IMG/VR virus record: IMGVR_UViG_3300037047_000162
Span: 3,566-67,565 of that record
Direction: 5' to 3' (one strand)
From: a virus
Taxonomy: Duplodnaviria; Caudoviricetes
Length of the DNA: 64,000 nt
Shown: piece after piece, positions 23,579 to 62,915 of the stretch
Position numbering within the stretch: position 1 is the first letter of the stretch
How the letters are laid out: each line of letters begins with the position of its first letter
Made by a program: the position numbers and the translations under genes
Notes under the pieces: model-generated
What the model saw: only the letters and a program-made list of their open reading frames with translations
The model's database searches: none
What the model was told of the DNA's origin: nothing

Positions 23579-23630
23579 AAAAAGGGGGACAGGCACCGAT
23601 CGTCCTGAACGGAGCCAGTCCCCGTTTTTC
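23579..23630. repeat. Imperfect GGGGACAGG...CCAGTCCCC palindrome related to the 18503 element
   Basis: AAAAAGGGGGACAGGCACC ... GGAGCCAGTCCCCGTTTTT, intergenic. Confidence 0.7.
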
Positions 23631-25833
23631 AACGGGGTTGAATCCATGAAGTTCCGGACGGGGTGTCTTGGTCTCGGGGCGGGGGTTTTTTGGCGGGTTT
23701 GGTCGGGGAGTTTTGTTTGGGGCGGATGGTCCACAGGCCCCAGATGGTGCGGGCGGCGATGGCGTAGGCGGTGGCGTCGAGGTAGTGGTTGGCTTTCTGG
23801 CTGCGGAGGTGGCCGGGGCGGGAGCCTTCGGGGACCCAGCGGTACGAGCCGTTGGGTTGCTTCTGCCACTCTTCGCTGAGGATGTGGCCGGCGTAGTTCT
23901 GGTGCCGCTGCCATTTCTCGCGGCCGGCTTCGTCGCGCGGGGGTGTGAACAGGGCGAGGCTGCCGACGGTGCCGAACGGCTGGAGGAAGCCGTGGTGAAC
24001 TTTCAGCTTCCAGGCGTCGGCGTCCAGGTCGGCGAGCCAGATGCCGTTGTTGTAGGACAGGTTGCACTCGGGGAGGGGCACTACGGTCTGGCTGGCGTTC
24101 CGCTGCTGCCACGGCGAGCGGCCTTTGCAGGGGAGGATGCCGCGGAAGCCGGCCTGGGCAGCCAGGATGTAGACGGGCTCGACGCCCCATTGCTTGTCTT
24201 TCCAGCCGCTGTCAATCAGCGTCAGGTCGGGGACCCAGCCGGTGCCTTCGCGGTCGTCGAGCTGGCCCCAGGGATGCGTGCGGATGCCGTCCCACCAGGT
24301 TTGCAGGCCGTCCAAGACGAGCTTTTCGCAGGCGGCGGCCGGGCGGCCCTCGGTGGCGAAGGGGACGAACGAGAAGTCGATGATGCTGCCGGCCGCGGCG
24401 TCGGACCAGGCGATGGTCACCACGTGCAGGCCGTTTAGGTTCACGTCGGCGCCGCAGGTCAGGGCGATCGTGTCGTCGGGGACCACGCCGCGTTCGTGGC
24501 CGGTGCGGCAGTTGGCGCGGATGTGGTACGTCGTCAGATACAGCTGCTGGGCGTCGACTTCGGCGGGCGGATCGTTCTGGTACTCGGTCAGGAAATGCTC
24601 CAGGCCGCGGTCGGCGATGATATTGTAGGCGTGCTGGAGCGACGAGTTTTCCAGGGGCGTGCCGTCGGGGGCCGGGTCGGTGATGTACCGCGACGGGTTG
24701 CCCGTGACGGCGCCGGCGTCCATTTCGGCTCGGTGGTCGAGGTAGAACTGGTTCGCCCCGCGGGCCGTGTCGTCGCCGGTGTTCTGGTTGGTCTGCCGAG
24801 CTTCGATGTAGCGGTCCCAGAGGTCCTTGCGGTCCGGCCAGACGATGATGAACTGCATGCGACGGCCCTTCCAGGACGGTTTGCGGGCGCGGTCGATGTA
24901 GGTGGCCGAGAGGCTGTAGCTGCTCATCGTCGTGGTGAGCATCACGCGGGCCAGCCGCTTGCCGGGGCCGCCCAGTCCGGCCAGGTCTGCTTCGATCGTG
25001 CGGGCGCGGAGGTCCGTCTGGACGCCGCTGCGGGCCGAGTCGCGGGTTTCCGGATCGTCGATGATCACCAGATCGGGGCGTTTGGTGCCGACCAGCACGC
25101 CGCGGATCGCGGAGTCGAGCCCGCGGGTGGTGATGACGGCCCCGCTGCCCAGGGACTGTTGGCCGGGGCGCAGACGCGGATCCCAATGGTCCGGCACGCG
25201 GACGGTGGGCAGGACGATGTAATCCTGCGCCCACTTCAGAAACGTCCGCTTGCCGTTGGCCGTCTGCGTGGCTCCCCGCTGGGCGGTTCCGTCCAGGGCC
25301 AGGATCGGATCGCAGATTTCGGGGTAGTCGTCGGCCAGGGCCTGGTTGCGCTCGAGCTGGTACTTGATGTTGGCCAGGATCTGCTCGGCGTTGGGGCCGG
25401 TGGCGGCGGCGATCAGCGGGAACGAGAGAATCCCGTGCATCACGCAGTAGATCGTCACGCACTGGACGATCGAGGTCTTGCCCTCGCCGCGCGGGGCGGC
25501 AATCGCCTGGTCGCCGCCGTAGCGGGCCGCGTTCAGGATGGCGGCGACCATTTCCCGGCGTTGGTCGGTCCAGTCGCCCCAGAACACGTCGGGGAAGTAG
25601 CAGGTCAGGAACGCGTAGATGTCTGCCGAGTTGGCCAGGCGGCGCTGGACGTCGGCCGGATCGCGGATCTTGACGTCCTTCAGCGATGCCCGGATCTTGC
25701 GTTTGCGCAGGGCGTCGGCCACGCGGATGCCGGCCTTCTTGTCGTCGCCGGCCAGGCCGGTGATTTGCTCGACCTGCCGCTTCAAGTCGGAAACCGACTG
25801 CTGGCGTTTCTGGATTTCGGCTTTGAGCGTCAT
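23629..25833 (-). CDS. Large terminase subunit (lambda GpA-like)
   Basis: Walker A APRGEGKTS, VIIDDPET, GADVN nuclease motif, ANHYLDATAYA. Confidence 0.9.
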   Translation of the reverse strand: MTLKAEIQKRQQSVSDLKRQVEQITGLAGDDKKAGIRVADALRKRKIRASLKDVKIRDPADVQRRLANSADIYAFLTCYFPDVFWGDWTDQRREMVAAILNAARYGGDQAIAAPRGEGKTSIVQCVTIYCVMHGILSFPLIAAATGPNAEQILANIKYQLERNQALADDYPEICDPILALDGTAQRGATQTANGKRTFLKWAQDYIVLPTVRVPDHWDPRLRPGQQSLGSGAVITTRGLDSAIRGVLVGTKRPDLVIIDDPETRDSARSGVQTDLRARTIEADLAGLGGPGKRLARVMLTTTMSSYSLSATYIDRARKPSWKGRRMQFIIVWPDRKDLWDRYIEARQTNQNTGDDTARGANQFYLDHRAEMDAGAVTGNPSRYITDPAPDGTPLENSSLQHAYNIIADRGLEHFLTEYQNDPPAEVDAQQLYLTTYHIRANCRTGHERGVVPDDTIALTCGADVNLNGLHVVTIAWSDAAAGSIIDFSFVPFATEGRPAAACEKLVLDGLQTWWDGIRTHPWGQLDDREGTGWVPDLTLIDSGWKDKQWGVEPVYILAAQAGFRGILPCKGRSPWQQRNASQTVVPLPECNLSYNNGIWLADLDADAWKLKVHHGFLQPFGTVGSLALFTPPRDEAGREKWQRHQNYAGHILSEEWQKQPNGSYRWVPEGSRPGHLRSQKANHYLDATAYAIAARTIWGLWTIRPKQNSPTKPAKKPPPRDQDTPSGTSWIQPR

Positions 25834-25840
25834 GGTCGTA

Positions 25841-25914
25841 GGTCGGAAGTCGGAAGTCGGAGGGCAGAGGGCAGGGCGAGTGGTGCTTGGTGCTTGGTGC
25901 TTGGTGCTTGGTTT
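25841..25914. repeat. Heptameric tandem repeats (GTCGGAA, GGTGCTT x4)
   Basis: Read directly; similar heptamer tracts at 8161-8192, 33677-33711 and 34269-34300. Confidence 0.75.
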
Positions 25915-25919
25915 GGGCG

Positions 25920-26015
25920 GCTGGGATTCGTTTTGGCTGCGTTGGGGGTGGTTTGGGGGTTCTGACTGCTGGTTTTCGTTTGGTTGCGTGGGAAGCGACG
26001 TTTTGCTCGTGGAAA
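25920..26015. repeat. ~95-bp dispersed element, second copy at 32309-32404
   Basis: Shared GCTGGGATTCGTTyTGGCTGCGTTGG...GGGGGTTCTGA...GCGTGGG...CGACGTTTTGCTCGTGGAAA. Confidence 0.8.
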
Positions 26016-26515
26016 CCGGCGGCTGGCGACCGCTGGGGCTGCCGGAGGGGCATTGGTTGCCGGGGTTTGACAAAAAAAGCCGCATTCCCGACGGGACGCG
26101 GCTACGAAAAAAGGGAGCGGCCGCGCCTCGTGGTGAGGCGTGCAACTCCCCATGATGTTAATCTAGCATGTACCGGGAGTGTTTTGCAAGGCAGTCCGAA
26201 AGAAGCGGGGCCTGACCGTCAGCATGTTCTGTAGGTCGATGCCGTCCTTGCTCCACCACTTCCACCGTAGTTCAGCTTTCAGTTCGACGAGTTCTTCTTC
26301 CATCGCCTTGGCATACCGTTGCAGCCACTGGTTTGGCAATATCGCGTACACGTTCCGTGCCCCGCCGACGTCCCCGGCCGTCAAAGTGCTGTTGGCTAAG
26401 GAGCAAGGCCAGTGGAAGGTAGAGCGGTTGACAGTGGAGTGAGTCTTCCGATTTGCTATACTGCCAGCCAGCGATGTCTCTCCCGCAGGTTTCCTTCAAT
26501 CCCCGGCAGCTGAGC

Positions 26516-29500
26516 ATGGACGAGCAAAAGATTCAGAAATTCATCCAACGTTGGTCGAACTCCGGCGGCGCGGAACGGGCCAATTATCAACTGTTCCTCT
26601 CCGAACTGTGCGACGTGCTGCAGGTCGCCAGGCCGGAGCCGACGGTCGAGGACGACGCCCGCAATGCGTACGTCTTTGAACGCAACGTACTGTTCGACAA
26701 TCTGGATGGCACCCACACGACGCGGCGGATCGATCTGTACAAGCGGGGGTGTTTTGTCCTGGAGTCGAAACAAGGCGTCTTGCAGCACGACGCCGCGCCG
26801 GTCCTGTCGGCTCGGCAGCAGGAACTGCGGGCCAAACGCAAACGGGGGCACGGCACGCGCGGCACGGCGGCTTGGGATGACGCCATGTTCCGCGCCCGTG
26901 GCCAGGCCGAGCAGTACGCCCGCGCCTTATCGCCCGCCGAAGGCCGCCCGCCGTTCGTCGTGGTGGTCGATGTCGGCCACTCGATCGAGTTGTTCGCCGA
27001 GTTCTCGCAAACCGGCGGGACCTACGTGCCGTTTCCCGACCCAAAATCGCACCGCATCCGCCTGGACGAATTGGCGGACGCCGAAGTCCGCGAGCGGCTG
27101 CGTCAGGTCTGGACGGAGCCGCTGAGTTTGGACCCCGCCCGCCGTTCGGCCCGCGTCACCCGCGAGATCGCCGCCAAGCTCGCCGAGTTGGCCAAGTCGC
27201 TCGAAGCGGCCGGCCACCACGCCGACGACGTCGCCCAGTTCCTGATGCGCTGCCTGTTCACCATGTTCGCCGAAGACGTCGAACTGCTGCCGCGGGACTC
27301 GTTCCGCCGCCTGCTGTGCAGCATCGACGACCTGTCGCATTTCGTGCCGCTGGCCGAGGAGTTGTGGCGGACCATGAACCGCGGCGGGTTCTCCAGCCTG
27401 CTGCGGACCAGCTTGCTGCACTTCAACGGCGGCCTGTTCGCCGACCCGTCCGCCCTGGCGTTGACGCGGGACCAGTTGGACCTGTTGATTGAAGCGGCCG
27501 GCGCCGACTGGAAGGACGTCGAGCCGGCGATCTTCGGCACCCTTCTGGAACGCGCCCTCGACTCGGTCGAACGGCACAAGCTGGGCGCGCACTACACGCC
27601 GCGGGCCTACGTGGAACGGCTGGTGATCCCAACCGTGATCCAGCCGCTGCGGGACGAGTGGGACGCCGTCCGCACGGCGGCGGTGACGCACGCCCGGGAC
27701 GGCGACCGCAAGGCAGCGGTGGCCGAGCTGGAGGCGTTTCACGACCGGCTGTGTGATGTGCGGGTGTTAGACCCAGCCTGCGGCTCGGGCAATTTTCTGT
27801 ACGTCACGCTCGAACATCTCAAGCGGCTGGAGGGCGAACTGTTTGCGACCTGGGAGAGCATCGCCGAGCGGCAGGCGCGGCTCGAAGGCGGCCATACCGT
27901 CGATCCGCACCAACTGTTGGGCATCGAGATCAACCCGCGGGCCGCCGCGATCGCCGAACTGGTGTTGTGGATCGGCTATCTGCAATGGCACTTCCGCACC
28001 CACGGCCGCGTGAATCCGCCGGAGCCGGTGATCAAGAACTTCAAGAACATCGAGTGCCGCGACGCCGTGCTCAGCTGGTCCAGCAAGCAGCCCGAACTCG
28101 ACGAGCATGGGAAGCCCGTCACCCATTGGGACGGCCGCACCACCAAACCGCACCCAGTGACCGGCGAAGAAGTGCCTGACGAAAACGCCCGCGTGCTGTC
28201 GTTCCGGTACCTGAACCCGAAGAAGGCGGAATGGCCGGAGGCGGAGTTCATTGTGGGGAATCCGCCGTTTGTGGGCGTCGCGAGAATGCGGGAAGCGTTC
28301 GGCGATGGGTACGTAACGACGTTGCGGCAGACGTATTCAGAGCTTCCCGAGTCATGCGACTATGTCATGTACTGGTGGCACAAGGCGGCGGAATTGACTC
28401 GCACTGGTGCCGTGCGGCAGTTCGGCTTCATCGCCACAAACAGTCTGAGGCAAACGTTCAATCGACGGGTCATTCAGCCTCACCTGGAGTCTAACCCTCC
28501 GTTGTCAATCGTCTTTGCGATTCCTGACCACCCCTGGGTCGATTCGGCGTTGGGCGCGGCGGTGCGCATCTCAATGACCGTGGGATGCTGTGGCGAAAAC
28601 GACGGCAAGTTGTCCGTCGTGACAGAGGAAGTTGATCGAGGTGAGATTGGAGCTGAAACCACCGTGGTGACACGAACTGGCAAAGTTCACGCCAATCTTA
28701 CCTTGGGGGTCAACGTGGATCTCGCCGAGAGTCTGCGGGCCAATTCCGACCTCAGCAATCGTGGCGTATCCCTTTTCGGAGCCGGCTTCATCGTGACACC
28801 GGACGAAGCCAAGCGGTTGGGCCTTGGTACGACGCCGGGACTGGAACGTCACATCCGCCACTATCGCAACGGACGAGACCTGACGCAGACATCTCGCCAC
28901 GTGATGGTAATTGACCTTTTCCAATTGAAGGCCGACGAGGTTCGCCAGCGATTCCCTGAAGTGTATCAATGGCTGTACGAGCGAGTGAAACCCGAACGCG
29001 ACCACAATAACCGCGCATCGAGGCGCGACAACTGGTGGCTGTTTGGCGAAACGAATCCCAAATTACGACAACAGCTTGCAGGGCTGAAACGCTACATCGC
29101 CTCGGTTGAAACTGCAAAGCATCGTTTATTTCAGTTTCTCGACGAATCAATTCTTCCGGATAACAAGCTCGTCAACATTGCCTTGGATGATGCCTACTAC
29201 CTTGGCCTATTGTCGTCGCACACTCATGTTTGCTGGGCGTTGGCTAGTGGAAGCTGGCTGGGGGTTGGCAACGACCCGGTCTACGTCAAGTCGCTCTGCT
29301 TCGAGGCGTTTCCTTTCCCCGACCCCACCGACACCCAGAAATCCCGCATCCGCGCTCTGGGCGAGCAATTGGACGCTCACCGCAAGCGGCAGCAGGAGTC
29401 GCATCCCAAGCTGACGATGACCGGGATGTACAACGTGTTGGAAAAGCTGCGGGCGGACCAACGGCTGGACGCGAAGGAGCAGGCGATCCACGAGCAGGGG

Positions 29501-29962
29501 CTGGTCTCGGTGCTGCGGCAGATCCACGGCGAGTTAGATGCGGCGGTGGCAGACGCTTACGGCTGGCCGGTTGACTTGACCGACGAGCAGATCCTGGAAC
29601 GGCTAGTGGCCTTGAATCAACAGCGGGCCGAAGAAGAGCGTCGCGGCCTGATTCGCTGGTTGCGCCCCGAGTTCCAGAACCCGGAAGGCCGGACTCAACA
29701 AGCCATCGCCGCCGGGGAAACCGAGACGCCCACGACCGCAAAGAAGGCCGAGACAGCCAAGCGGCCCTGGCCCAAGTCGCTGTCCGCCCAAGCCGCCGCG
29801 GTCCAGACCACGCTGGCCGAACTAGCCGCGCCAGCCGACGAGGTCCAAATCGCCAAACGCTTTACCGCCGCCAACAAGGACCGCATCGCCGAACTGCTGG
29901 AAACCCTCTCGTCGCTAGGCAAAGCCCGCCAACTGGACGACGGCCGCTATGTGCCCATGTGA
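26516..29962 (+). CDS. MmeI-like Type IIL/IIG restriction-modification fusion
   Basis: N-terminal [15 protein letters not shown] (PD-(D/E)xK), [24 protein letters not shown]-like C-terminus. Confidence 0.9.
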
Positions 29963-31498: not shown

Positions 31499-33646
31499 TC
31501 AGGCCCGGTTTCGCCCGCGGTTTCTGCTGGCGGGAAACTCCGCGACTTTCGTGCTGCCGTAGGATGCGACCAGCTTGGGCTTGCGTTCCTGGCGGACGAT
31601 CGGCACGGTGAAGGAGGCGGGCAGCGGATCCCCGGTGCGGAGGTAGGGGGCGATCTGCTGGAGGGCCAGCGCGATCGAGTATTCGTCGCTGCCCAGCTCG
31701 AACTTGCCGAGGTCCTGGGGGATTGTTTCCAGGTCACAGCCGGTCTCTTGCTTCCAGATCTGGCGGACTACGTCGACCATGCCGTCGCGAAAGTCGTCGC
31801 TGGTAGCATCGAACCGCTGGACTTCGCAGCGGCGGATGAAACGGTCCGTCAGCTTGTGGAGGTTATTCGTGGTGAACACGACTACCGTCTTGGCGGGGAG
31901 CTTTTCGAGGCCGTCGAGCCACATCACTTCGGCCTGTGGGGTCATGCGGTCGGCTTCGTTGATGATGACAACTTTCCAACCGCTGCCGGCCATCGGGCGG
32001 AGGTGCATTCGCCGCAGGAGGTCTTCGACCGCGCGGCCGTCCTGCGTGCCGCTGGGGATTTCGACCACGCCGCCCCAGTCCGGATCGCAGCCCAGTTCGT
32101 TGGCGAGCGCCCAGGCGGCGGCCGTTTTGCCGACGCCGCTGGAGCCGGCGAAGATGAAGGCGTTGGAATGCGGGGCGGCTGCGAAGGCGGAGAGGCTGCG
32201 GATGACGGCCGCCTGGCCGTGGATGTCCGCCAGCCGGGCGGGCTTGTGGCGGGCCAGCAGGTTGCCGTTGCGGCGTTCTTTGTCCTGTTCCGGCGATTTC
32301 TGGAGGCCGCTGGGATTCGTTCTGGCTGCGTTGGATTCGGCTGGGGGTTCTGAATCCTGTTTTTCGGCTGGATGCGTGGGGACCGACGTTTTGCTCGTGG
32401 AAAACGACGGGGTTTCGGGGGTGGTTTTCTGCTGGGCGTTGCTGGCCGCTGGGGACGCTTGGGGGGCGTGCTGGACGGCTTGGGGTTTTGGGTCTGCCGG
32501 GTGCGCGGGATGCGTGGATGGGGCGGGGTTGCTCGGGGAATGGGACGGGGGGGCGAGGGGGTTGTCGGCGTCTTGGAAAGACGCGGCTACGTGGGGGGAC
32601 CAGCCGGGTTTCTGGACGGCGACCATGACGGCCTTGACGCCGGTTCGGCGGAAGGCGTTGGAGCTGTTGAAGGCATCGTCCGGGAGTTCCACCACGTCCC
32701 CGTCCATTTCTTCCAGCCACGCGCGGAAGCCGGTTGCCCGGCTGGTCTGGCGGAAGCGGAAGCCGTTGGACATGATGGCGACCAGGCGGCCGCCGGGCTT
32801 GACGTGGTTGAACGCCTGGCGGACGTTGGCCATGTCGGCGCCCTTCTCGAACGGCGGGTTCATCAGCACGCGGTCGTACTGGCGGCCGTTGCCGGTCCAT
32901 TCGGTGAAGTCGCCGCCAACGACGGCGTGGCCTTTGGCTTTGAGGATTTTCTGCAGCGCGGGCCGCAGTTCGATGGCGTCGAGGTCGGTGTGGGGGAATG
33001 CCTGCTTGACGCGGTCGCAGATGGAGCCGATGCCGGCGGAGGGTTCGAGGACGGTCTGGCCGTCGTGCATGTCGGCGGCGGCGAGCATCAGGTCTATCAC
33101 GGGGTCGGGGGTGGGGAAGAAGCCTTCGATGTTGGCGTTGCGGAGCTGGTCGATCATGTGTTTGATTTCGAGCTGGCGGGCAGAATTCACCGGGGGGCTG
33201 ACGCCGCCCCGCTCGCCCGGCTGCTGCGCCGGAGTCTTGGCGTTGTCGGCCAGGACGCGGACGGCTTGGGCTTCGGGGGTGCCGTCGATCCAATCTGGTC
33301 CGTCCACGTAGTAGCCGTGGTAGCCGTTGCTGACCATGACGCCTTTGCGGGCGGCGATTTGCAGGAAGCGGTCTTTCGTGGGGACGAAGTTGGCGAGGGC
33401 GGCGGGGCGGTCGCCTTGTTCGAGCATGGCGGAGTAGGCGCGGATGAATTCGGCGGCCCGCTGGAGTTGGGCGCCTTCGCGCTCGGCCGAACGGGCGTGT
33501 TTCAGCATGCGGGGCGTATGCGCGGGGCGATCGCGGAACTTGTCGGCGACTTGCCGGTCGAGGGTTTCGGCGAGCCTCTGGAGGGCGGCGGGGGAACGGC
33601 GGGCGGGGGTCTTCGCGGCGGCTTTGGTTGTGTTGGTGCGGGACAT
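31499..33646 (-). CDS. Fusion: class I SAM DNA methyltransferase + clamp-loader-clade AAA+ ATPase
   Basis: FFPTP, VLEPSAGIG, VLMNPPF; then LLARHKPARLADIHGQ, FAGSSGVGKT, IINEADRMT. Confidence 0.8.
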   Translation of the reverse strand: MSRTNTTKAAAKTPARRSPAALQRLAETLDRQVADKFRDRPAHTPRMLKHARSAEREGAQLQRAAEFIRAYSAMLEQGDRPAALANFVPTKDRFLQIAARKGVMVSNGYHGYYVDGPDWIDGTPEAQAVRVLADNAKTPAQQPGERGGVSPPVNSARQLEIKHMIDQLRNANIEGFFPTPDPVIDLMLAAADMHDGQTVLEPSAGIGSICDRVKQAFPHTDLDAIELRPALQKILKAKGHAVVGGDFTEWTGNGRQYDRVLMNPPFEKGADMANVRQAFNHVKPGGRLVAIMSNGFRFRQTSRATGFRAWLEEMDGDVVELPDDAFNSSNAFRRTGVKAVMVAVQKPGWSPHVAASFQDADNPLAPPSHSPSNPAPSTHPAHPADPKPQAVQHAPQASPAASNAQQKTTPETPSFSTSKTSVPTHPAEKQDSEPPAESNAARTNPSGLQKSPEQDKERRNGNLLARHKPARLADIHGQAAVIRSLSAFAAAPHSNAFIFAGSSGVGKTAAAWALANELGCDPDWGGVVEIPSGTQDGRAVEDLLRRMHLRPMAGSGWKVVIINEADRMTPQAEVMWLDGLEKLPAKTVVVFTTNNLHKLTDRFIRRCEVQRFDATSDDFRDGMVDVVRQIWKQETGCDLETIPQDLGKFELGSDEYSIALALQQIAPYLRTGDPLPASFTVPIVRQERKPKLVASYGSTKVAEFPASRNRGRNRA

Positions 33647-33794
33647 GGTTTGGTTCGCTTTCGTTTTGAATGTGAGTAATGGGACGAATGGGACTGATGC
33701 GAGTAATGGGGTTGCAAGAACGAAAACGGGTGCCCGTGTGAAGGCGGGCACCCGTGGGGATGCTGACTGCCGAGCCGGGCGGACGCTGACGGCT

Positions 33795-34312: not shown

Positions 34313-34930
34313 TCAGAACAGCTCTCGCGTGGTGCGGACGGTACCTTTGCCTTTGGTCTGGGCGACAGGCTTGGCGCCGCCCCGCTTCAGCTCCCAGAGG
34401 CGGTAGGCTTCGTCTTCGTAGGGGTCTTTTTCAGCGGGCTCGGGGACGAGTCGCGTGCTCTCGGTGCGGAAGTATTCCAGGCCGCGGCCGAGGGCTTTGC
34501 CGCGGCTGGTGTGCTGGTCGCAGGTCCACTCGGGCACCTGGGGCGTGTAGCCTTCGAGCTGGCTGCGGAGGCCGACGGCGGCTTGGAAGTGGTCCCCTTC
34601 GCGGGACTTGGGGGCGCGGCATAGGGCGCGGATGGCGGTGCCGACGGCCATTCGCCACTGGCCGAGCTTGTCGGGGTTGTACCAATCGCGGGCTTGCTCG
34701 CAGCAGGTGTGGACAAGGGGGATGACGCTGGGGCAGGCGAGGCCGATGTCTTCGTGGCTGATGATCTCCAGCCGGTTGGTGAGCCACGTGCCGAATGCCT
34801 TGGACGTGTGGCCCATCTCGCAGGCCATCTCCATCGCTTCGCGCTCGAGGCCGCGGCGGATGAACTTCTGCAGCGAGCTGATGCAGTCGTGAGGTGACAT
34901 GCCGTGGATGGTTTTGGGAATCATGGTCAT
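34313..34930 (-). CDS. Stand-alone RarA/MgsA C-terminal-like domain protein
   Basis: CISSLQKFIRRG...RLEIISHEDIGLA...LCRAPKSR resembles the RarA ISA..KS.RG...RL...ASEDIGLA region. Confidence 0.75.
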   Translation of the reverse strand: MTMIPKTIHGMSPHDCISSLQKFIRRGLEREAMEMACEMGHTSKAFGTWLTNRLEIISHEDIGLACPSVIPLVHTCCEQARDWYNPDKLGQWRMAVGTAIRALCRAPKSREGDHFQAAVGLRSQLEGYTPQVPEWTCDQHTSRGKALGRGLEYFRTESTRLVPEPAEKDPYEDEAYRLWELKRGGAKPVAQTKGKGTVRTTRELF

Positions 34931-35595: not shown

Positions 35596-36621
35596 TTAGC
35601 GGGCTTCGACGTTTTCCCGCTCGCGTTGCTTCAGCCACTGCTTCCATTCGCGGTCGGCTTTGCGCTGGGCGGCCTGCTCCGCCCGGATCTCGGCTTTGGT
35701 CTTCGGCTTCGGGGGCTCGACGTTGACCGGCTCGGGCGTGGGCTCGTCGGAGACGATGGGTTCCGGCTCCAGCTCCGGCGGCGGGGGCGGCGGGTCTCCG
35801 ATGCCGGCCAGCCGCTTCAGGGCTTCGCGGGCGAGGTAGACGGCCCCGTATTCGCTGTAGACGCCGGAGATGATGATGGCGTTGGGGTCGTTGGTGACCA
35901 GCGTGATTTCCGATCGCATGGGCGGACGCGGCCTGCCAAGGGTCTTGCAAGGGGCGCCGTTCAGGCACTTGGCACGGAACATCAGGCTGCGGTAGAACCA
36001 ACCAGAGACGGCGGCCGCGAAGGTGGCGATGTCCAGTGGGTCGCCAGCCCGCTTCAAGCAGACCGCGTTGCAGTGGCCGGTGCGATCCGAGTAGCACTTG
36101 TCCGCACAGTGAACGACCCACAATTCCACGCGGAAGTCGGCTTGTTCCAGGACGTGGGTCATGGCGATCGCGGCCGCGCCCCGCCAGAGGATGTCTTCGT
36201 GGTCGATGCTGGCGTTGGCGTTCAGGTCGATCACGATGGTGACGGTCTGCGGGCCAGCCGTGTTCTGGCGTTCGCATCGCCGCCAGAACTCTTGTCCGGA
36301 CCGCAGGCGGTCGTAATCGAGTTCGCTGCCGTCGTCCTGGGCGAATCGCGTCTTGCGTTTGCGGGACTTGGGTTTGGGCAGGTCCGTGGATTCGAGTTGC
36401 TCGACCATACGTTCCACGATCTGGCAGCCGTCGTCCCACGGTGACCGGGCGGCCGAGTAGACGTCGGGCCACGAGTAGAAGGACCGGCCAATCCAGTCCA
36501 GTCGGCCGAACGGGTTGACGTTCTTCGTTGTGCTTTCGCGAACGGCTTGGCAGCTCGCGATCAGGTCTTCCACGCTGTCGAACGTGCGGACGTGTGTCTG
36601 GTAATTCTGCTGGTAGTACAT
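35596..36621 (-). CDS. VWA-like partner of a MoxR-type ATPase
   Basis: VTIVIDL.ANAS...FRVELWV; directly downstream of the AAA gene. Confidence 0.6.
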   Translation of the reverse strand: MYYQQNYQTHVRTFDSVEDLIASCQAVRESTTKNVNPFGRLDWIGRSFYSWPDVYSAARSPWDDGCQIVERMVEQLESTDLPKPKSRKRKTRFAQDDGSELDYDRLRSGQEFWRRCERQNTAGPQTVTIVIDLNANASIDHEDILWRGAAAIAMTHVLEQADFRVELWVVHCADKCYSDRTGHCNAVCLKRAGDPLDIATFAAAVSGWFYRSLMFRAKCLNGAPCKTLGRPRPPMRSEITLVTNDPNAIIISGVYSEYGAVYLAREALKRLAGIGDPPPPPPELEPEPIVSDEPTPEPVNVEPPKPKTKAEIRAEQAAQRKADREWKQWLKQRERENVEAR

Positions 36622-36624
36622 GCT

Positions 36625-37698
36625 TCACCCCCGTGCCTTTCGGATTTCGTCGTCTCGCCAACCACTGAACAGCTTGCTGTCAACCTTGTCGTAGGACCAA
36701 CCGGCCTGAACCATGCGGTGTGCCTTGATGATGAACCGCGTGCTGACGATCCGTTCGAGGCGGTTGCGTCGGGCGTTCTCGCGGTAGGCCAGCAGGCGGG
36801 CGTACAGCTCCGCGTCCGGGCAGAGTTGGCGTTCCAAGCTCTCGTCGTAGTCCATTGGGACGGTCCCGATCCGGAAGCGATCGAGCGTGCTTTCGTCCAG
36901 CTGGTTGCGGCCCACATACTGGCGGTCCGCGCCGCGGCCGAACGTGTTGGCGGCGGCGATGCAGATGAAGTCGGGGTGCCGCTTGGCAACCGGCTTGTCG
37001 TGTCTGCTGGGGACGGACAAGTGGCCGTTGGCCAAGGCGCTGTTGATGACGAGTAGGACGTTGCTGTCGGCGGCGTCGATCTCGTCGAACAGGAAGACGC
37101 CCCCGTTCTCGTAGCAATCGAGGAACTGCGTCCCTTGGAACTCGAACTGCCCGTGCTCCCCGGCGGGGACGCAGCGGCCGAGCAGCTGCGATTCCGACAT
37201 GCCGGCCGAGCAGGAGATGGAGCCGAACCGCAGGCCGAGGGCGTCGGCGACTTGCTTGGCAAGGTGCGACTTGCCGCAACCGGCCGGACCCGGCAGGAAG
37301 ATGTCTTCCCGGACGGAGGCGAGTTCGAGCACTTCGGGGAAGATCGGATGGACGGCCCCTTCGATCCGGACGGGGTCGCGATCGGGCTGGCGGATCTCCA
37401 GCACCTTGAAGCCGCCGGACTGTTCGAGCTTGGCTTCAAGCTGTTCGACCCGGCTGGTCAGGCTGGCGATCCGTTCCTTGGCGTCTTCGGTCAGGTCCGC
37501 GGCCGGGGCCGGGTGGTTGTCTTCTCCGTCGCCGTTTCCGCCGGGGACGGCGTGGTAACAGTCTGCGTGTGCCCAGCGTTGGGTTCCGTTGGCAAACTTG
37601 CGGACGAGTCTGATCGGCTCGCCCTTTTCGATCTGCTTGAAGCAGATGGCGCACTTTGCCTTGACGGTGGCGAGTTCGTGCTGTAGGGTAACGGACAT
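36625..37698 (-). CDS. MoxR/CobS/CbbQ-type AAA ATPase
   Basis: GPAGCGKS, FLFDEIDAAD, IAAANTFG, LDESTLDRF. Confidence 0.88.
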   Translation of the reverse strand: MSVTLQHELATVKAKCAICFKQIEKGEPIRLVRKFANGTQRWAHADCYHAVPGGNGDGEDNHPAPAADLTEDAKERIASLTSRVEQLEAKLEQSGGFKVLEIRQPDRDPVRIEGAVHPIFPEVLELASVREDIFLPGPAGCGKSHLAKQVADALGLRFGSISCSAGMSESQLLGRCVPAGEHGQFEFQGTQFLDCYENGGVFLFDEIDAADSNVLLVINSALANGHLSVPSRHDKPVAKRHPDFICIAAANTFGRGADRQYVGRNQLDESTLDRFRIGTVPMDYDESLERQLCPDAELYARLLAYRENARRNRLERIVSTRFIIKAHRMVQAGWSYDKVDSKLFSGWRDDEIRKARG

Positions 37699-37796
37699 TG
37701 CATTTCTCCTTGCGTCGTAAGGGGGAATGAAAAAGGCCCGGTGCGGGGGCAACCGCATCGGGCCAGTTTCGTTTGGGGACAGGGTTCGTTTAGGGA

Positions 37797-38024
37797 CTAG
37801 GGAAGGACATCGACTTCGAGCAGCTGGCGGGCGCCGCCGCATTCGGCTTTCAGTCGTTTCCAAGCCAACTGGCGGGCTTCGGTCAGGGTTCCGGTGGCGG
37901 CCACGGTCTGGCTGCTGAAGCGGCCGTTGCCGTCGGTGAAGTGAAGGTCCAAGTACCACTGGCCCCAGCCGCGGGGCTTGTGTCCGTGGGCGAATTCAAA
38001 CTGTTCGGTGTTCGTGCGTGCCAT
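37797..38024 (-). CDS. Small conserved-type phage protein
   Basis: FEFAHGHKPRGWGQWY motif; AAAGG RBS. Confidence 0.55.
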   Translation of the reverse strand: MARTNTEQFEFAHGHKPRGWGQWYLDLHFTDGNGRFSSQTVAATGTLTEARQLAWKRLKAECGGARQLLEVDVLP

Positions 38025-38649
38025 GTGCGTGCCTTTCGTGTGAGGACTTGGGTTTCGTCGCAACTCATCAGGGCAGGCTGCGAATGCCTGCCGACCCAAG
38101 GGGGAGCGTTTACCACCGCTCCCCGATCTGGTCTTGCCTTGCTAACCAGCCGGGCCTTGTTCCGGTCTGCCACCCACAAGTGAGGAGGTCTGGTTTGGGC
38201 GTCCTTGCCGCGTAACTTGGTTGTCAAAGATCGCTTGGAGTTAGCTGACTTTGGTTCCGGCTTCTGTGTGTGCGTAGTGCCAAAGCCAACTTCCACTGTC
38301 CCTAATTTCGACTGTCCTTCGGGGGGTGACAACCCGACCTGAACGTGTTGGAACAAGATTTTTCAAAATTCCCCGACCGGGGGTGGCGCGTTGCCGTTAT
38401 TTCCCTGGACAGAATGCGTTGTGGACCGATTGGTCATTTGGAAAAATTTTTGCGAGAAGGCGGAGAAATGCCGTGTTTTGCGGGCTGCTGGCGGTCCGCG
38501 CAGGACGATTTCTGCGCTGGCGGGCGGGGACTGGACGGGGCCGCACGGGGGCCAAAGCTGGCGCGGAGCGACTGAGAAGCACGGCTGGAGCCGGGGCCGG
38601 CTGGGCGGGGAGTTGCGTTCGCCCAGCCGGACACCCGGCGATGTTTCCA

Positions 38650-39327
38650 CTACGCCTTCACGGTGTGCCGCCGGGTCGCCAGGATGTCGGCGGCCGCGGC
38701 GGCGATGTTCACCACGTCGGCGATCCAGCCGACGGCCAGCGATTGCTCGACGCGGTCGCGAGGGGCGGTGCAGAGCTGGTCGTAGTCGAGGACCGGGATG
38801 TTGAGCGCCGCGGCGGACTGGCGCATCAGGATCCAGCTCACCTCGTGGGCGCGTTTTGCCCTGGCTGTCAGGTCCCCGGTCTGGCGCACGATGTGGCCGC
38901 GGTCGGCCAGGGCGTTGTAGATGGCGTCGTACCAGGCGAGCACGCGCAGGCGGCTGGGCGGAAAGACGCTGGACGCCGCGCGGTAGAGCATGACGATGCG
39001 GAAGTGGCGGGCGTACCAGGCGACCTTGAGCGGGGAGAAGTTTTCCTTGTCGAAGTTGTACGGCTCCGCGGCCCACGTCGTGCGGTATAGCGATTCGAGG
39101 GTTTCGACCTGGCGGTCCCAGGGCACGCCGATGTTGGCGTAGCACGAGGCCAGCTCGCAGCCGAAGGCGGCTTCGAGCCTGGTCCCGTGCCGCGGGTTGC
39201 AGATCGGGTTGAAGAACTCTTTGTGGTAGTACCGCAGGCCGCCTTGCCGCGCAAGGATCGGGCAGAGCCAGTCGGTGCCCGAGTTCGGCAACGACAGAAT
39301 CAGATACTGGTCGCGTGCTTGACCCAT
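38650..39327 (-). CDS. P-loop sulfotransferase-like protein
   Basis: LILSLPNSGTDWL (PRSGT-like), HKEFFNP, MLYR..SSVF, VLDYDQL. Confidence 0.65.
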   Translation of the reverse strand: MGQARDQYLILSLPNSGTDWLCPILARQGGLRYYHKEFFNPICNPRHGTRLEAAFGCELASCYANIGVPWDRQVETLESLYRTTWAAEPYNFDKENFSPLKVAWYARHFRIVMLYRAASSVFPPSRLRVLAWYDAIYNALADRGHIVRQTGDLTARAKRAHEVSWILMRQSAAALNIPVLDYDQLCTAPRDRVEQSLAVGWIADVVNIAAAAADILATRRHTVKA

Positions 39328-40253
39328 CGGGGGATCGCCTTTCCAAGTGCCTGAGTGTGCGGGTCGCCGTAGTTCACCAGCACGGCCGCCAGCTCGTTCA
39401 TGCAGTCGGCGGGCGTGCCGGCGCGGAGCGTGACCGCGTCCACGTCCTTCCAGAAGGTCTCGTTGCGTTCGATGCCGGCGGCTTCCTTGACCAAGTTGCG
39501 GAACGGGTTGCTGGCCCGATGATGGTCCACGACGGGGAGGCCGACGGAGACATGCCAGCCGAGGTGGTCGCAGACCTTTTTCAAGATCACGCCGCCCCAG
39601 ATGTCGTCGAACCGGTCGTAGGGCTGGCCCTGTCCCATCAGCGGCAAGTACATCAGCGGCAACGCCTCGCGGCGGAACGCCACGTTCATGGTGCTGATCG
39701 GGACGTACTGGCCGCGGGCGATGATGCGGGGATACGCCACGGGGTGAAACGGCCGAAGGTCCGCAGCCAGGACCAGGCTGTGCGGGGCGTCGTAGTCGCC
39801 AACGGTCTGCCACAGGCCGGCATTGACGTGGACGGACTGGAGACAGCCCCGGTTGCGATACGGGACGCCGCGAGCGGTCATGTTCAGCGCGGACGTGACC
39901 CAGCGCGGCATCCGCAGCAGAGCGTCCAGGTGGGCCTGCATAAAGGCGTCACCGGCCGGGTAGCAGTCGTCGTCGATGGTGGCGATCACGTCGGCGCCGC
40001 GGCGGGCGGCTTCGAGGTAGCCCGCGATCCTGATGCCGGCGTTCTTGCGCGAGACGATCCAGGCGTCGTCGCCCAGGTCCCGTTCGATCGAGTCCCACGA
40101 CAGGACGCAGGCGGCCTCGGGCACGCGGGGCGCTTCCGAGGCCGGTCCGTCCCATACGACGATCAGCTCGTCCCAGTCCTTCGCGGACTGCCACCGCTGG
40201 CAAAAGGTCTCCAGGCAGTCGGCCCGGTTGCTGGGAATGACAAGCACGTTCAT
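39300..40253 (-). CDS. RGP / UDP-arabinopyranose-mutase-like (GT75) protein
   Basis: SRKN, TIDDDCY, RGVPY, GLWQTVGDYDAP, MNVAFRRE, LMGQGQPYDRFDDIWGG, KKVCDHLG, GLP...H.RASNPF.NL.KE, collinear with plant RGP motifs. Confidence 0.85.
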   Translation of the reverse strand: MNVLVIPSNRADCLETFCQRWQSAKDWDELIVVWDGPASEAPRVPEAACVLSWDSIERDLGDDAWIVSRKNAGIRIAGYLEAARRGADVIATIDDDCYPAGDAFMQAHLDALLRMPRWVTSALNMTARGVPYRNRGCLQSVHVNAGLWQTVGDYDAPHSLVLAADLRPFHPVAYPRIIARGQYVPISTMNVAFRREALPLMYLPLMGQGQPYDRFDDIWGGVILKKVCDHLGWHVSVGLPVVDHHRASNPFRNLVKEAAGIERNETFWKDVDAVTLRAGTPADCMNELAAVLVNYGDPHTQALGKAIPRWVKHATSI

Positions 40254-41026
40254 GCGTTCACCTCAAATTTGACCATCGGATTGGAGCGTTCGACCTTGAG
40301 CCCCACGGCGGAGCCGGCCTTCGACTTGATGTAGCCCGCTCGCTTGCGGGCCACGAACTGGCCCCACTTGCGATACAGCCGTTTGGTGCTCTGGTTGAAC
40401 CGGTCGTGAGACAGCTGGCCCGCATTGCCGCCGCGGCCGGCGAAGATCCGGCCGTGGTCGAAATACCACCGCATGTCCTGCAGGCAGATCCGATCTTCGA
40501 GCAGGGTCTGCAGGGCGAAGTCGATGTCGGCCCGGCCGGGCAGCTCGGGATCGAAATGCCGCTGCCGCGCCGGCCCCCGCAGCCCGAACGAGCACATGAC
40601 CGGCGCGGTGAACCGGAACGGCAGGTAATCGGGCTCGATGTTCACCACGTTGCGGGTCCGCGACCAGCAGAAGACGCCGATGTCCAGGTCCGCGGCCACC
40701 TGGTGGCCGTTGTGGATGATGTGGGCGATCAGCTCCGGGTCCGTCACCTTGACCTGCTTTCCGATCTGCGGGTAAACACCCTTCATGTCGTCGTCCACCA
40801 TCACGAGGCAGTCTTCCTGGATCGTCTGGTTCAGCCAGTTACGGATCGCGATGATGCCAGGCAGGTTGTCGTGGACCAGCAGCCGGCCGGCGCCAACCGC
40901 GGCCGCATAGTCCCGCTCTTCCCGCTTGGCCACGCACACCACGGCGTCAGGCAACAGCGAGAGCATCCGCCGCATGTTCTTGACCCTGGCCCGCGACGGG
41001 ACCACGATCTTCCGTGACTCGCTCAT
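40250..41026 (-). CDS. GREB1/TET-associated (TAGT)-like glycosyltransferase
   Basis: IVVPSRAR...EERDY...IRNWL...MVDDDM...DIDF.LQ.L...GGN. Confidence 0.7.
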   Translation of the reverse strand: MSESRKIVVPSRARVKNMRRMLSLLPDAVVCVAKREERDYAAAVGAGRLLVHDNLPGIIAIRNWLNQTIQEDCLVMVDDDMKGVYPQIGKQVKVTDPELIAHIIHNGHQVAADLDIGVFCWSRTRNVVNIEPDYLPFRFTAPVMCSFGLRGPARQRHFDPELPGRADIDFALQTLLEDRICLQDMRWYFDHGRIFAGRGGNAGQLSHDRFNQSTKRLYRKWGQFVARKRAGYIKSKAGSAVGLKVERSNPMVKFEVNA

Positions 41027-41696
41027 TGATTAACCCCTGAATCAACTCGATCAGCGTCGAGGCTTTCACGCCGCGGCCGATCCCGAATTTCGGCTTCCGT
41101 GTGCTGCGCCGAACCGTCTTCAGGTCCAGCAGGTCCATCAGGATGTTCCATTCGTTCGTGTTGCTGGCCAGCACGATCACGTAGTCGTAGTGTTCGTGCG
41201 GCCGCAGGTACATCGCTTCGGGGCCTTCGGTGGCGTCCTCTTCGCCAGTCGGTTCCTCGGCCGCCGCCCGGTCGAGCCGGGCCATCATCTCGTCGATCAG
41301 CTTGCGCAGCTCGGCTTCCTCTGCCTCCAGGCCGCCCAGCAGTTGCCGCTGCAGGTCTTCGTCCGTCTCCGCCATCTCGGCGGTCGGGTGCAGCGTGGCG
41401 ATCACGATGTCCGCCTCGGCTCGCGTCAGGTCCGTGACGGCCACGGGCCACACCTGGTCCGGACCCAGCCGCTGGCGGAGGTGGCCGTCGTACAGCATCA
41501 GCCGCGACGAGTCGCCCGCCGGCCCCAGGCCGTCCGCGGGGAAGGCGAGCGCCACGTCGATGATGCCGACCTCCTGCAGCAGGCCGGTGACGGCCGCGCC
41601 CTGCTCTACCGGATGCGTGCGGTAGTTCAGCGGGTGCGGTTCGCACTCACCGATGCGGACGCGGCGGAGTTCTTTGATGCGGTCGCGGAAGGCCAT
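40947..41696 (-). CDS. ParB/Srx-like N-terminal domain protein
   Basis: PHPLNYRTHP..Q...L.EVG...LYDGHLR; acidic linker; C-terminal YDYVIV...GIGRGV. Confidence 0.8.
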   Translation of the reverse strand: MAFRDRIKELRRVRIGECEPHPLNYRTHPVEQGAAVTGLLQEVGIIDVALAFPADGLGPAGDSSRLMLYDGHLRQRLGPDQVWPVAVTDLTRAEADIVIATLHPTAEMAETDEDLQRQLLGGLEAEEAELRKLIDEMMARLDRAAAEEPTGEEDATEGPEAMYLRPHEHYDYVIVLASNTNEWNILMDLLDLKTVRRSTRKPKFGIGRGVKASTLIELIQGLINERVTEDRGPVAGQGQEHAADALAVA

Positions 41697-60186: not shown

Positions 60187-61287
60187 TCATCCCACCTGCC
60201 GCGCGACCTCGACCGCCAGCCGCTGGTCCCGTTCCGCGTACACCTGCGTCACATCGGCCTTGCTGTGGCCGAGGACCACCTGGGCCGCCTCCAGCCCGAA
60301 CTTCTGGCGGACCGTCGTAGCGGCGTTGTGCCGCAACTGATTTGGATGCCAGGGCTCAAGCAACGGCTGGCCTTGCTTCCGACGTAGTCGGTTCGCTCGG
60401 TTAACGGCAGACTTAATCCGATCGTGGTACGCTCGCGAATTGAATCCTCGGGGGCTCCGCGGTGCCCGAAAACAGGGTAAGTCGTCACCGAAAAGATACG
60501 GTTTCAAGATTTCCTGCGCCTGCGGACCGATGTAGACAATCCGCTGGCGGCCGTGATGTTCGGTCTTATGTTCCTCGGGAACGAATCGCCAAACGTCCCC
60601 GGTGCGGTCGATGTCCTTCGGCCGCATACTGCAGACTTCGCCAGGTCTGGCCCCCGTGAGCCGCTGGAATTGCACCATTGCGGCGACCACGGGCTTCAGG
60701 TGTGGCAAGGTCGCATCGACCACGGCATCATCGACCGGCAGCACCGGAGCGGTTTCTCGGGCGGTGGTTTTCCCCTTAGCCAGACCGGGAACGACAATTA
60801 GGCGGTGGTAGACTTCGGCGGGGACCAATTCCTCCGCAGCGGCCCATTTGAAAATGTGCTTGATCCGGCCCGCTTGCTTGTTGACGTAGTTGCGGGAGTT
60901 ACCCGCCAAAACCATCTGGTCCCGGACTGCCTTCAAACCCTTCGGCCCGAAATCTGCGGCTCGGGTTCTGCCGTACAGGTCTTTGAGGTATCGCAGCACA
61001 ACCTTATAGCTGGCCACTTCGTCGGTGACTCGACCGCGCTTGACGTAGTGCTTGGTGGCGTGACGGAGAAACGCTCCACACACCTCGGTGATCGTGATAT
61101 CGACCGCGGGCGTGATGCGTGTCGGCCGATCATCGGCAACCCATTCGGCGATCCGCCGCTTGTATTCCTGTTTACTGGCGGCGGTGCCAAATTTCCCCAG
61201 GTAGAAGTCGCGTCCACCAATCCGTACCACAGCTTGGCCTGACGCGTGTTTGCGATACTTCGGAACGGAGTTTACGAGTCTCGGCAT
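60187..61287 (-). CDS. Prophage tyrosine integrase
   Basis: TGARPGE, HKT, NQLRHNAAT, LGHS, VY; adjacent to the tRNA fragment. Confidence 0.92.
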   Translation of the reverse strand: MPRLVNSVPKYRKHASGQAVVRIGGRDFYLGKFGTAASKQEYKRRIAEWVADDRPTRITPAVDITITEVCGAFLRHATKHYVKRGRVTDEVASYKVVLRYLKDLYGRTRAADFGPKGLKAVRDQMVLAGNSRNYVNKQAGRIKHIFKWAAAEELVPAEVYHRLIVVPGLAKGKTTARETAPVLPVDDAVVDATLPHLKPVVAAMVQFQRLTGARPGEVCSMRPKDIDRTGDVWRFVPEEHKTEHHGRQRIVYIGPQAQEILKPYLFGDDLPCFRAPRSPRGFNSRAYHDRIKSAVNRANRLRRKQGQPLLEPWHPNQLRHNAATTVRQKFGLEAAQVVLGHSKADVTQVYAERDQRLAVEVARQVG

Positions 61288-61426
61288 AGTGCAGCCCTTT
61301 CGGCAACCGGACCGCAAAATGGTAGGCTACCACTTTGCGCCCCGTTGGTTTTTCCGAAAAAACGCCGCACTTCCGAACGTCGGAAGGTATCGTAAGTCTC
61401 TACTCGGCTTGAAGTTACGTTGTCAG

Positions 61427-61652: not shown

Positions 61653-62915
61653 ATGGCGTCCATTCAAAAGAAGGGGGATGGCTGGTACTGCCAGTTCTTG
61701 TACCGCGGCAAACGGCACACGTTCACCATCGGGAAAGTTGATGACGAGGAAGCGGAAACCAAGGCGAATCAAATTGATTACCTGCTGATGCGGATCCGCC
61801 AAGGGCTGCTCACCGTGCCGCCCGGCATCGATATCGTGTTGTTTCTACAGCACGACGGCAATCCGCCGGAACCCGTTGCACAAGCAGAGCAAAGCGAGCC
61901 GCAGATCCTGACCCTGGGCGGCCTTCGCGACCGCTACCTGGAAACACACGGGAACGGGAGCCTGGAGCCGACGACATTGAGCTTGATCAAAACACATTTT
62001 CGGCACCTGGTGGCCACCCTCGGCGAACGGTTTCCTATCGGCGAACTGGGGATGGCGGATTTGCAGAAACACATCAACAGGCGGGCCAAAATGAAGGGTC
62101 TGAAACAGGGCAAGCTCTCGCCGACGACCATGAAAAAAGAAATCGTCACCTTGCGGACGGCGTGGAACTGGGGCGTCAACATGCGGTTCCTATCCGGCAA
62201 GTTTCCGGCGACGGGTCTCACGTACCCGAAGTTCGAGGACAAGCCGCCATTTCAGACCCGTGAAGAAATCGAGCGGCGTATCGCCGCCGGCGGCCTGAAG
62301 AAGAAGGAAATTGCCGAGCTATGGGACTGCCTGTACCTGACACTGCCCGACGTCGAGGATATCCTGAAGCAGGTTGACGAAAAAGCGATCCAACCCTGGG
62401 TCCATCCCATGTGCTGCATGGTGGCCTACACCGGGGCACGACGCTCTGAAATGCTCCGGGCATTCGTGACCGACATCGACCTGCAGAACCAGACGGTCCT
62501 GCTCCGCGAACGGAAGCGGGCCAAGGGGCGAGCGACGACTCGCCGCGTGCCGTTGGCCCCGCAACTTGTGGACGTCCTCAAAGCCTGGCTTGCGATCCAC
62601 CCCGGAGGTCAGCACTTGTTCGCTCAAGCGACGGTTGTCGCGCGCAGTAAAAGCACGCGAAAGGCTGCCACGCCGATCACGCCGGACGAGGCCCACGATC
62701 ATCTCAAGCGGGCGCTGGCCGATACCAAGTGGAACGTCATGCGGGGCTATCACGTCTTCCGCCACTCCTTCATCAGCCTGGCCGCCAGCCGCGGTATCGA
62801 CCAGCGGTTGATCGACGAGTGGGTTGGCCATCAGACCGACGAGCAGCGTCGCCGGTATCGCCACCTGTACCCGACGACGCAGCAAGAGGCGATCAGCCGG
62901 ATGTTCACCAAGTAG
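61653..62915 (+). CDS. Tyrosine integrase of a second integrative element
   Basis: YTGARRSE, YHVFRHSF, VGHQT, RY. Confidence 0.92.
   Translation: MASIQKKGDGWYCQFLYRGKRHTFTIGKVDDEEAETKANQIDYLLMRIRQGLLTVPPGIDIVLFLQHDGNPPEPVAQAEQSEPQILTLGGLRDRYLETHGNGSLEPTTLSLIKTHFRHLVATLGERFPIGELGMADLQKHINRRAKMKGLKQGKLSPTTMKKEIVTLRTAWNWGVNMRFLSGKFPATGLTYPKFEDKPPFQTREEIERRIAAGGLKKKEIAELWDCLYLTLPDVEDILKQVDEKAIQPWVHPMCCMVAYTGARRSEMLRAFVTDIDLQNQTVLLRERKRAKGRATTRRVPLAPQLVDVLKAWLAIHPGGQHLFAQATVVARSKSTRKAATPITPDEAHDHLKRALADTKWNVMRGYHVFRHSFISLAASRGIDQRLIDEWVGHQTDEQRRRYRHLYPTTQQEAISRMFTK

Follow-up and report, generated by a model that had tools for sequence, protein, structure and literature searches.

The 64-kb window analysed here, taken from the 67.6-kb IMG/VR virus record IMGVR_UViG_3300037047_000162 (CheckV completeness 100%), carries on its minus strand a cassette of four overlapping genes, G1 to G4, at positions 38650-41696. 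We propose, with evenly divided confidence, that they represent a modular phage cassette for the glycosylation of a macromolecule of the phage; its target would most probably be the replicated DNA of the phage itself. A more specific product is put forward with considerable reserve: a sulfated furanosyl mark (of galactofuranose or arabinofuranose type), placed on DNA by a ParB-activated TAGT enzyme, on an acceptor made by no known ThyA- or TET/JBP-type enzyme, with a sulfotransferase-like enzyme that is dedicated to furanose and may lock the ring. To our knowledge, neither a sulfate ester on nucleic acid nor such an acceptor route has been reported.

The four genes were called from third-position GC and lists of open reading frames (ORFs); the GC content of the window is ~64%. 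G1 (40947-41696) encodes a ParB/Srx-fold protein (ParB-CTPase N-domain), G2 (40250-41026) a TAGT-type GT-A glycosyltransferase, G3 (39300-40253) a GT75/RGP-family nucleoside diphosphate (NDP)-sugar pyranose-furanose mutase, and G4 (38650-39327) a sulfotransferase-fold protein of 225 residues. Neighbouring genes overlap by 80 nt (G1/G2), 4 nt (G2/G3) and 28 nt (G3/G4), and are for this reason taken to be translationally coupled. Since the gene order is kept in many independent loci, the arrangement is not a chance pattern of ORFs. The preliminary description, made from the letters of the window, had already recognized four overlapping, co-oriented genes of these families; coding signal, ORF lists and conserved order bear out the layout, and the four family assignments hold by profile, PDB and fold matches. 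For G4, the listed ORF of 387 residues overshoots the true start: coding signal and aligned relatives both begin at the ATG at 39327.

G3 looks like an active NDP-pyranose/furanose mutase, because it keeps every catalytic residue known from GT75 mutases. It matches Pfam RGP at 6.9e-38 (131 bits, against a threshold of 23.8), and its PDB matches, at ~1e-18, are MtdL-type GT75 mutases and UDP-arabinopyranose mutase (7yua, 7xpr, 8cid). Mapped on the residues described in PMC9937993, G3 keeps Asp94 to Asp96, Arg128, Arg135, Asp153, Arg214, Asp217, His244 and Arg246. Nearly all of this set is invariant in 36 relatives. Arg128 is presumably the arginine that is autoglycosylated in the plant enzymes, and the PTIR consensus at the N-terminus of the G3 family resembles the same enzymes. 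The position of MtdL Asp87 is not an aspartate in G3, likewise in the plant enzymes, and the positions of MtdL Thr13 and Ser86, which bear on nucleotide specificity, align ambiguously with G3. With the plant UDP-arabinopyranose mutases (RGPs) and the bacterial MtdL and Hyg20, G3 shares the fold family, the DDD motif, the catalytic arginine, the Mn-binding histidine and the surrounding aspartate and arginine residues (PMC9937993); unlike them, it is phage-borne and coupled to a ParB-glycosyltransferase pair and a sulfotransferase-like gene. For a GT75 enzyme of plants, synthesis of UDP-galactofuranose has been shown (PMC9937993). A further G3 homologue (46% identity) is found at 7001-7927 of L039 (LR756511.1), a 595-kb uncultured phage, with no relative of G1, G2 or G4 within 7 kb; GT75 mutases thus also occur in phages outside the cassette.

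G2 is placed by its sequence at the edge of the TAGT family. It scores 26.7 bits against Pfam TAGT (PF20691), under the gathering threshold of 27.5, and of its 31 relatives, 27 hit TAGT (best 1.4e-11) without matching any other family. In addition, PHROG 842, 'beta-glucosyl-HMC-alpha-glucosyltransferase', matches G2 over its full length at 4e-13; the G2 profile against the PDB gave only noise. The protein is net basic. Its motifs are an N-terminal PSRxR, a DDD (residues 78-80) and [AE]DxDF; Asp78 to Asp80, Arg62 and Asp167 are invariant, and Asp169 and Phe170 are kept in at least 90% of relatives. This pattern resembles the R...DDD...EDY/F of the JGT-like GT-A enzymes that glycosylate 5-hydroxymethylcytosine (5hmC) in phage DNA (bioRxiv 10.1101/2023.12.21.572611).

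G1 alone has no Pfam match, and a profile of 25 relatives matches Spo0J (1vz0) at E 4e-4. In the AlphaFold2 (AF2) model (predicted local distance difference test, pLDDT, 81), residues 1-145 match PadC with a Z of 9.9 (root-mean-square deviation, rmsd, 3.3; 121 residues aligned), followed by KorB-CTP (Z 8.7) and sulfiredoxin (Z 7.8). The ParB fold gives way to an acidic linker, after which comes a small C-terminal domain that is conserved (PHEHYDYVxVLA...). No helix-turn-helix (HTH) was found in the AF2 model or by fold search, and the arginine patch GERRxR of canonical partition ParB proteins reads DGHLR. Because of these two departures from the canonical architecture, G1 is, as modelled, an orphan ParB-fold protein and not a partition ParB. 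Asn24, Arg26, His28 and the stretch Asp70-Gly71-His72-x-Arg74 are invariant or nearly so. In two relatives, an N6_N4 DNA methyltransferase domain replaces the C-terminal domain.

For G4, the sequence alone finds no match in Pfam, NCBIfam or the PDB, and only profile, fold and context are informative. Its family comprises 216 relatives among cluster representatives; a tblastn search of cultured phages found none. The AF2 model has a pLDDT of 97, and its five best fold matches are all sulfotransferases, led by TPST1 (Z 11.7, rmsd 3.4, 182 residues aligned), TPST2 (11.2) and a tick TPST (11.2). The family profile matches only the loops by which cytosolic sulfotransferases bind 5'-phosphosulfate (5'-PSB loops), weakly (E ~0.08); 4 of 78 relatives match Sulfotransfer_3 (best 1e-5) and 3 of 78 Sulfotransfer_1, and in the atlas, every one of the nearest clusters with a name is of sulfotransferases. 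The corresponding loop of G4 is LPNSGTDW, with the family form LP[NS]xG[ST]DW, in which the glycine is invariant. In TPST2, Arg78 in the PSB loop is catalytic, and the same study also gives Glu99 and Lys158 (PMC10951654). Glu37 of G4 is invariant and lies 22 residues past the loop, as Glu99 does after Arg78, and Lys94 and Arg116 are nearly invariant. In locus L025, a gene resembling adenosine 5'-phosphosulfate (APS) kinase directly follows the G4 homologue (Pfam 1e-13; PDB APS kinases 3e-9; LGFSEADR motif), which supports the predicted use of 3'-phosphoadenosine 5'-phosphosulfate (PAPS) by G4. An APS-kinase-like ORF is also present at 7032-7757 of L012, where it lies between the large terminase and portal genes and is 35% identical to that of L025; L012 has the ParB-glycosyltransferase pair, and no G4 homologue was detected in the stretch fetched.

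More than 30 loci, from phages, prophages and metagenomes, contain the cassette set, which frequently adjoins terminase genes. A survey of neighbourhoods, a check named in the preliminary description, found the four genes kept in the same order across independent loci, on other phage backbones and in prophages; blastn of the 3-kb cassette against cultured phages found nothing. The core of the set is the ParB-fold protein and the glycosyltransferase, usually with a gene for a protein like the C-terminal part of RarA (RarA-C-like), and G3 and G4 are an optional module, because the pair occurs without G3 and G4 in L010-L014, L016 and L017. In L003, L010, L012, L015, L018 and L021, the pair directly adjoins terminase genes, which differ in type. 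Next to the cassette, RarA-C-like homologues were found in at least 15 loci; these span different phage backbones, the gene can be on either strand, and gp91 of Microbacterium phage Teamocil is one of the homologues. Neighbouring ORFs in L022 and L006 were not relatives of G1, G2 or G4 by hhalign. One metagenome-assembled genome (MAG) of Planctomycetaceae, CAWGNG01 (L026-L031, L035; considered together with L004), holds seven copies of the cassette on different contigs, at 92-96.5% nucleotide identity, four of them on contigs 190-440 kb long; in the pairs compared, the common unit spans ~4-5 kb (the cassette and ~1.4 kb upstream), the flanks differ, and in some copies G2, G3 or G4 is split. 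The resident prophages may exchange the cassette as one block, by movement or recombination.

Where G4 relatives occur, a mutase gene nearly always comes directly before them. Of 26 metagenome loci whose upstream sequence was long enough, 21 have such a gene ahead of the G4 relative (14 of type GT75, 7 of type GLF), and the viral and genome loci show it too, with three exceptions. A GLF-type UDP-galactopyranose mutase (UGM; Pfam GLF 1e-53 to 1e-71) takes the place of the GT75 enzyme in L019, L020, L022, L025 and L034, and L015 has a eukaryote-type UGM (E 6e-153 to 4dsg). Gene order may also be shuffled, with GLF-type mutase, G4 relative, ParB, glycosyltransferase and RarA-C-like genes following one another in L047, and UGM, ParB, glycosyltransferase and G4 relative in L015. 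Since the mutase types replace each other while the rest of the set is kept, a furanose donor appears to be the shared need, which argues that the cassette requires such a donor and that G4 acts on something furanose-specific. The earlier suggestion that the RGP-like protein supplies an unusual nucleotide sugar is thus strongly supported, two other types of UDP-galactopyranose mutase standing in for G3 in related cassettes.

In the scheme that we propose, G3, as a Mn-dependent GT75 mutase, would very probably convert a host NDP-pyranose into an NDP-furanose, as its residues and context indicate, with UDP-galactose or UDP-arabinose as the probable substrate. G2, as a GT-A enzyme of JGT/TAGT type, would probably move the furanose onto the acceptor. 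G1, which has the ParB fold and no HTH for DNA binding, could well be the activator or targeting partner of G2, by analogy with the ParB-like proteins that act with phage thymine dioxygenases. For the TPST-like G4, PAPS-dependent sulfation of a furanose-specific hydroxyl seems somewhat favoured, either on the NDP-furanose, where it would lock the ring and pull an unfavourable equilibrium, or on the residue already transferred. The acceptor would be DNA, a step for which the chances appear balanced, and no hydroxylating enzyme of ThyA or dioxygenase type was found encoded.

DNA is the likeliest target on four counts: fusions to DNA methyltransferases occur among the relatives of G1, proteins of the ParB fold are proven helpers in the modification of phage DNA, the family of G2 is one of DNA glycosyltransferases, and RarA-C-like and terminase genes stay neighbours of the cassette. 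Several observations weigh against a sulfated furanosyl mark on DNA, and they concern the acceptor, the location of the cassette and the identity of G4. Models PF00303, PF00145, PF13532 and PF13640, all of which were positive on their controls, detect in the complete record neither a ThyA homologue nor a C5-methyltransferase nor a 2-oxoglutarate (2OG)-Fe(II) oxygenase of two general families, and ThyA has no match in five related records either. The TET/JBP model PF12851 has no match in the record or in the five related records, with a positive control that was also silent. The caveat of the preliminary description, that no TET/JBP enzyme or hydroxymethylase is visible, holds for the complete record as far as these searches show, with the same limit for TET/JBP. 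The cassette had been described as lying upstream of the packaging genes; in the window, the large terminase gene (23629-26145) is ~12.5 kb downstream, with at least eight genes and an opposite-strand MmeI-like restriction-modification (R-M) gene in between, and a position directly upstream is rejected there, while it stands for relatives in which the cassette abuts terminase genes. GREB1, which reportedly glycosylates a protein, is a member of the TAGT superfamily, and the family does not fix the acceptor. It is unlikely, though worth weighing, that a protein is what the cassette glycosylates, and perhaps sulfates, possibly at an arginine; such a protein might belong to the virion or the host, or be the ParB-like or RarA-C-like partner. 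GREB1 and the missing acceptor-making DNA enzyme are consistent with such a target, as are the arginine that GT75 enzymes autoglycosylate, which is conserved in G3, and the fold of G4, closest to the protein tyrosine sulfotransferases. Mycobacteriophage glycosyltransferases in structural operons have likewise been proposed to modify capsids, but the virion-glycosylation clusters in that study are not linked to a ParB-like gene (PMC4351075), whereas the cassette is tied to a ParB-fold protein with close relatives fused to DNA methyltransferases and to a RarA-C-like protein, and lies among replication and DNA-modification genes, outside the structural operon. A cell-envelope polysaccharide altered against superinfection, by lysogenic conversion or remodelling of host glycans, is far less probable still. 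G1 to G4 have no membrane segments, there is no flippase or lipid-carrier transferase, and the genes are translationally coupled within a lytic replication-to-late operon, not a moron beside the attachment site; the ties to ParB-like, RarA-C-like and terminase genes, and a related set of ParB, glycosyltransferase and sugar enzyme in Microbacterium phages, also speak against it. What favours an envelope target is the temperate nature of the phage, with its integrases at 60187-61317 and 61653-62915, and the typical occurrence of furanose sugars and sulfate esters in envelope glycans; the likely hosts, Planctomycetota and Verrucomicrobiota, have a rich sulfated-glycan metabolism.

That G4 adds sulfate, as had been suggested, fits its fold, the profile and atlas leads and the APS-kinase-like neighbour in a relative, but the catalytic lysine or arginine of the 5'-PSB loop (PKxGTTW or RSGTT), equivalent to Arg78 of TPST2 (PMC10951654), is replaced by asparagine or serine throughout the family. 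G4 itself stays under every Pfam sulfotransferase threshold, and below the top five fold matches, P-loop kinases (Z up to 9.0) mingle with sulfotransferases and score little lower. The equivalence of Glu37, Lys94 and Arg116 to Glu99, Lys158 and the 3'-phosphate-binding (3'-PB) arginine of TPST2 comes from spacing only. G4 might then be a degenerate or repurposed P-loop-like binder of a nucleotide or of NDP-furanose, for example a chaperone or a channel linking mutase and transferase, or else another group-transfer enzyme, and the mark an unsulfated furanosyl; we consider this doubtful, if somewhat less so than a protein target. The occurrence of an APS-kinase-like gene in two loci only would suit it. 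A sulfotransferase is better in line with the top of the fold ranking, the match of the profile to sulfotransferase PSB loops alone, the TPST-like spacings with an invariant Glu37, the named atlas clusters and the LGFSEADR motif of the neighbouring gene. A P-loop kinase is rejected, as a Walker A GK[ST] is absent from G4 and the fold search places sulfotransferases higher. In sum, the product that we tentatively prefer is a sulfated furanosyl mark on a macromolecule of the phage, probably on DNA.

The prediction of the ParB-TAGT pair reportedly comes from Iyer et al. 2013. JGT-like GT-A/TAGT enzymes act post-replicatively on phage DNA, glycosylating the 5hmC that a C5-methyltransferase and a 5-methylpyrimidine dioxygenase (5mYOX) have made (bioRxiv 10.1101/2023.12.21.572611; PMC8256090). 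The cassette resembles these systems in the type of glycosyltransferase (GT-A, R...DDD...[AE]D[FY]-like, Pfam TAGT), in its viral setting and in having ParB-like, terminase and sugar-modifying genes as neighbours. It differs in that 5mYOX (for which the control was silent), C5-methyltransferase and ThyA homologues were not found in the record, and in the donor-tailoring enzymes, a GT75 mutase together with a sulfotransferase-like protein; a term search of bioRxiv 10.1101/2023.12.21.572611 found neither. Furanose on DNA is known from phages RB69 and DLP3, which carry arabinofuranose on 5-hydroxycytosine, and the DNA-glycosylation cluster of Pootjesviridae has a phage UDP-galactopyranose mutase (PMC13326640). 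A phage pyranose-furanose mutase in a DNA-glycosylation cluster is thus shared with the window; in those phages, however, the acceptor is made by a ThyA homologue as a mononucleotide, the glycosyltransferases are others and the mutase is an FAD-dependent UGM, against GT75 in the window. They are lytic and replace the base fully, whereas the phage of the window is temperate, and neither sulfotransferase nor ParB is mentioned in PMC13326640 by term search.

ParB-like proteins have been shown experimentally to activate phage DNA thymine dioxygenases (PMC13229309). Like these activators, G1 is a small ParB-fold protein with a nucleotide-binding domain (NBD) and a C-terminal domain, has no DNA-binding domain and adjoins the gene of a modifying enzyme. 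Its partner, however, is a glycosyltransferase and not a 5mYOX, and activation of G2 by G1 is a candidate role. A related arrangement in cultured phages is that of the Microbacterium phages of genus Quhwahvirus (for example Teamocil gp88-gp91), where four genes stand in a row at the genome end: one ParB-like, one homologous to G2 (26% identity), one for an NDP-sugar-modifying enzyme and one RarA-C-like. Unlike in the window, the annotation of the third gene is UDP-glucose dehydrogenase and not mutase, and a G4 homologue is missing. The set of ParB, glycosyltransferase and sugar enzyme is also carried by the Microbacterium phages Metamorphoo and RobsFeet.

Of the components, several are already known: DNA glycosyltransferases of JGT/TAGT type, helpers resembling ParB, furanose sugars on the DNA of phages and, within a cluster of this kind, a phage UGM. 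Apparently new, in that they were not found in the literature searched, are a GT75 mutase in this role, the near-obligate pairing of a mutase with a sulfotransferase-like protein, tailoring by sulfation and a ParB-glycosyltransferase core without an acceptor-making enzyme. Sugar hypermodifications of phage DNA govern the fate of the phage against restriction, CRISPR and type IV nucleases, and are a source of enzymes for epigenetic sequencing chemistry. The cassette would add to them a metal-dependent GT75 mutase as a viral source of furanose donors, and a sulfotransferase-like family nearly confined to the neighbourhood of pyranose-furanose mutases of any type. It would further add a ParB-glycosyltransferase core without a recognizable base-hydroxylating enzyme, which points to a new acceptor or attachment chemistry. 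With the core present in cultured, easily grown Microbacterium phages, the target of the ParB-TAGT pair is directly testable there.

The genome is of a temperate, siphovirus-like type. Named relatives come from MAGs of Planctomycetaceae, Pirellulales, Thermoguttaceae, Verrucomicrobiaceae, Chthoniobacteraceae and Acetobacteraceae, from which a host in the Planctomycetota-Verrucomicrobiota group is likely. The minus-strand order starts with an integrase, followed by a RecD2-type helicase, a DNA methylase, an ERCC4 nuclease, a Toprim primase, an HNH gene and the cassette; a scan for promoters and terminators around the latter found nothing above chance. After it come AAA_5, DUF7192, RadC-like JAB-domain, MgsA_C-like and DUF6573 genes and a methyltransferase-AAA+ fusion, then the plus-strand MmeI-like R-M gene, the gpA-type large terminase, a lambda-type portal, an S49 protease and the tape measure.

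Downstream of G4, the ~0.95 kb at 37687-38650 before the AAA_5 gene has no clear codon bias, and within it only ~330 bp (~37785-38110) are conserved with L001 (77%), where an ORF of 75 residues is called. The AAA_5 (CobS/MoxR-like) ATPase gene itself (36625-37686, minus strand; Pfam AAA_5 2e-18, PHROG 249) is also found downstream of the cassette in L001, L004, L005, L011, L013, L014, L036 and L041. Its partner, a DUF7192 protein (35596-36621, minus strand; Pfam DUF7192 3.6e-20), has no relative in the PDB by sequence. The RarA/MgsA C-terminal-like gene of the window (34313-34930, minus strand, in an ORF open to 35041; Pfam MgsA_C 8e-7) lies near a gene at 31499-33751 in which a methyltransferase is fused to a clamp-loader-type AAA+ domain, and may serve either the cassette or this methyltransferase-AAA+ system.

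The MmeI-like type IIL R-M gene (26453-29962, plus strand) is complete, with N-terminal, helicase-spacer, methyltransferase and target-recognition domains; it is antisense in the late region, with the methyltransferase-AAA+ gene on one side and the large terminase on the other. The two tyrosine recombinases/integrases (60187-61317, minus strand; 61653-62915, plus strand) stand head to head at the same end of the prophage, and at the opposite end, a 503-residue ankyrin-repeat protein is encoded at 583-2094 on the plus strand.

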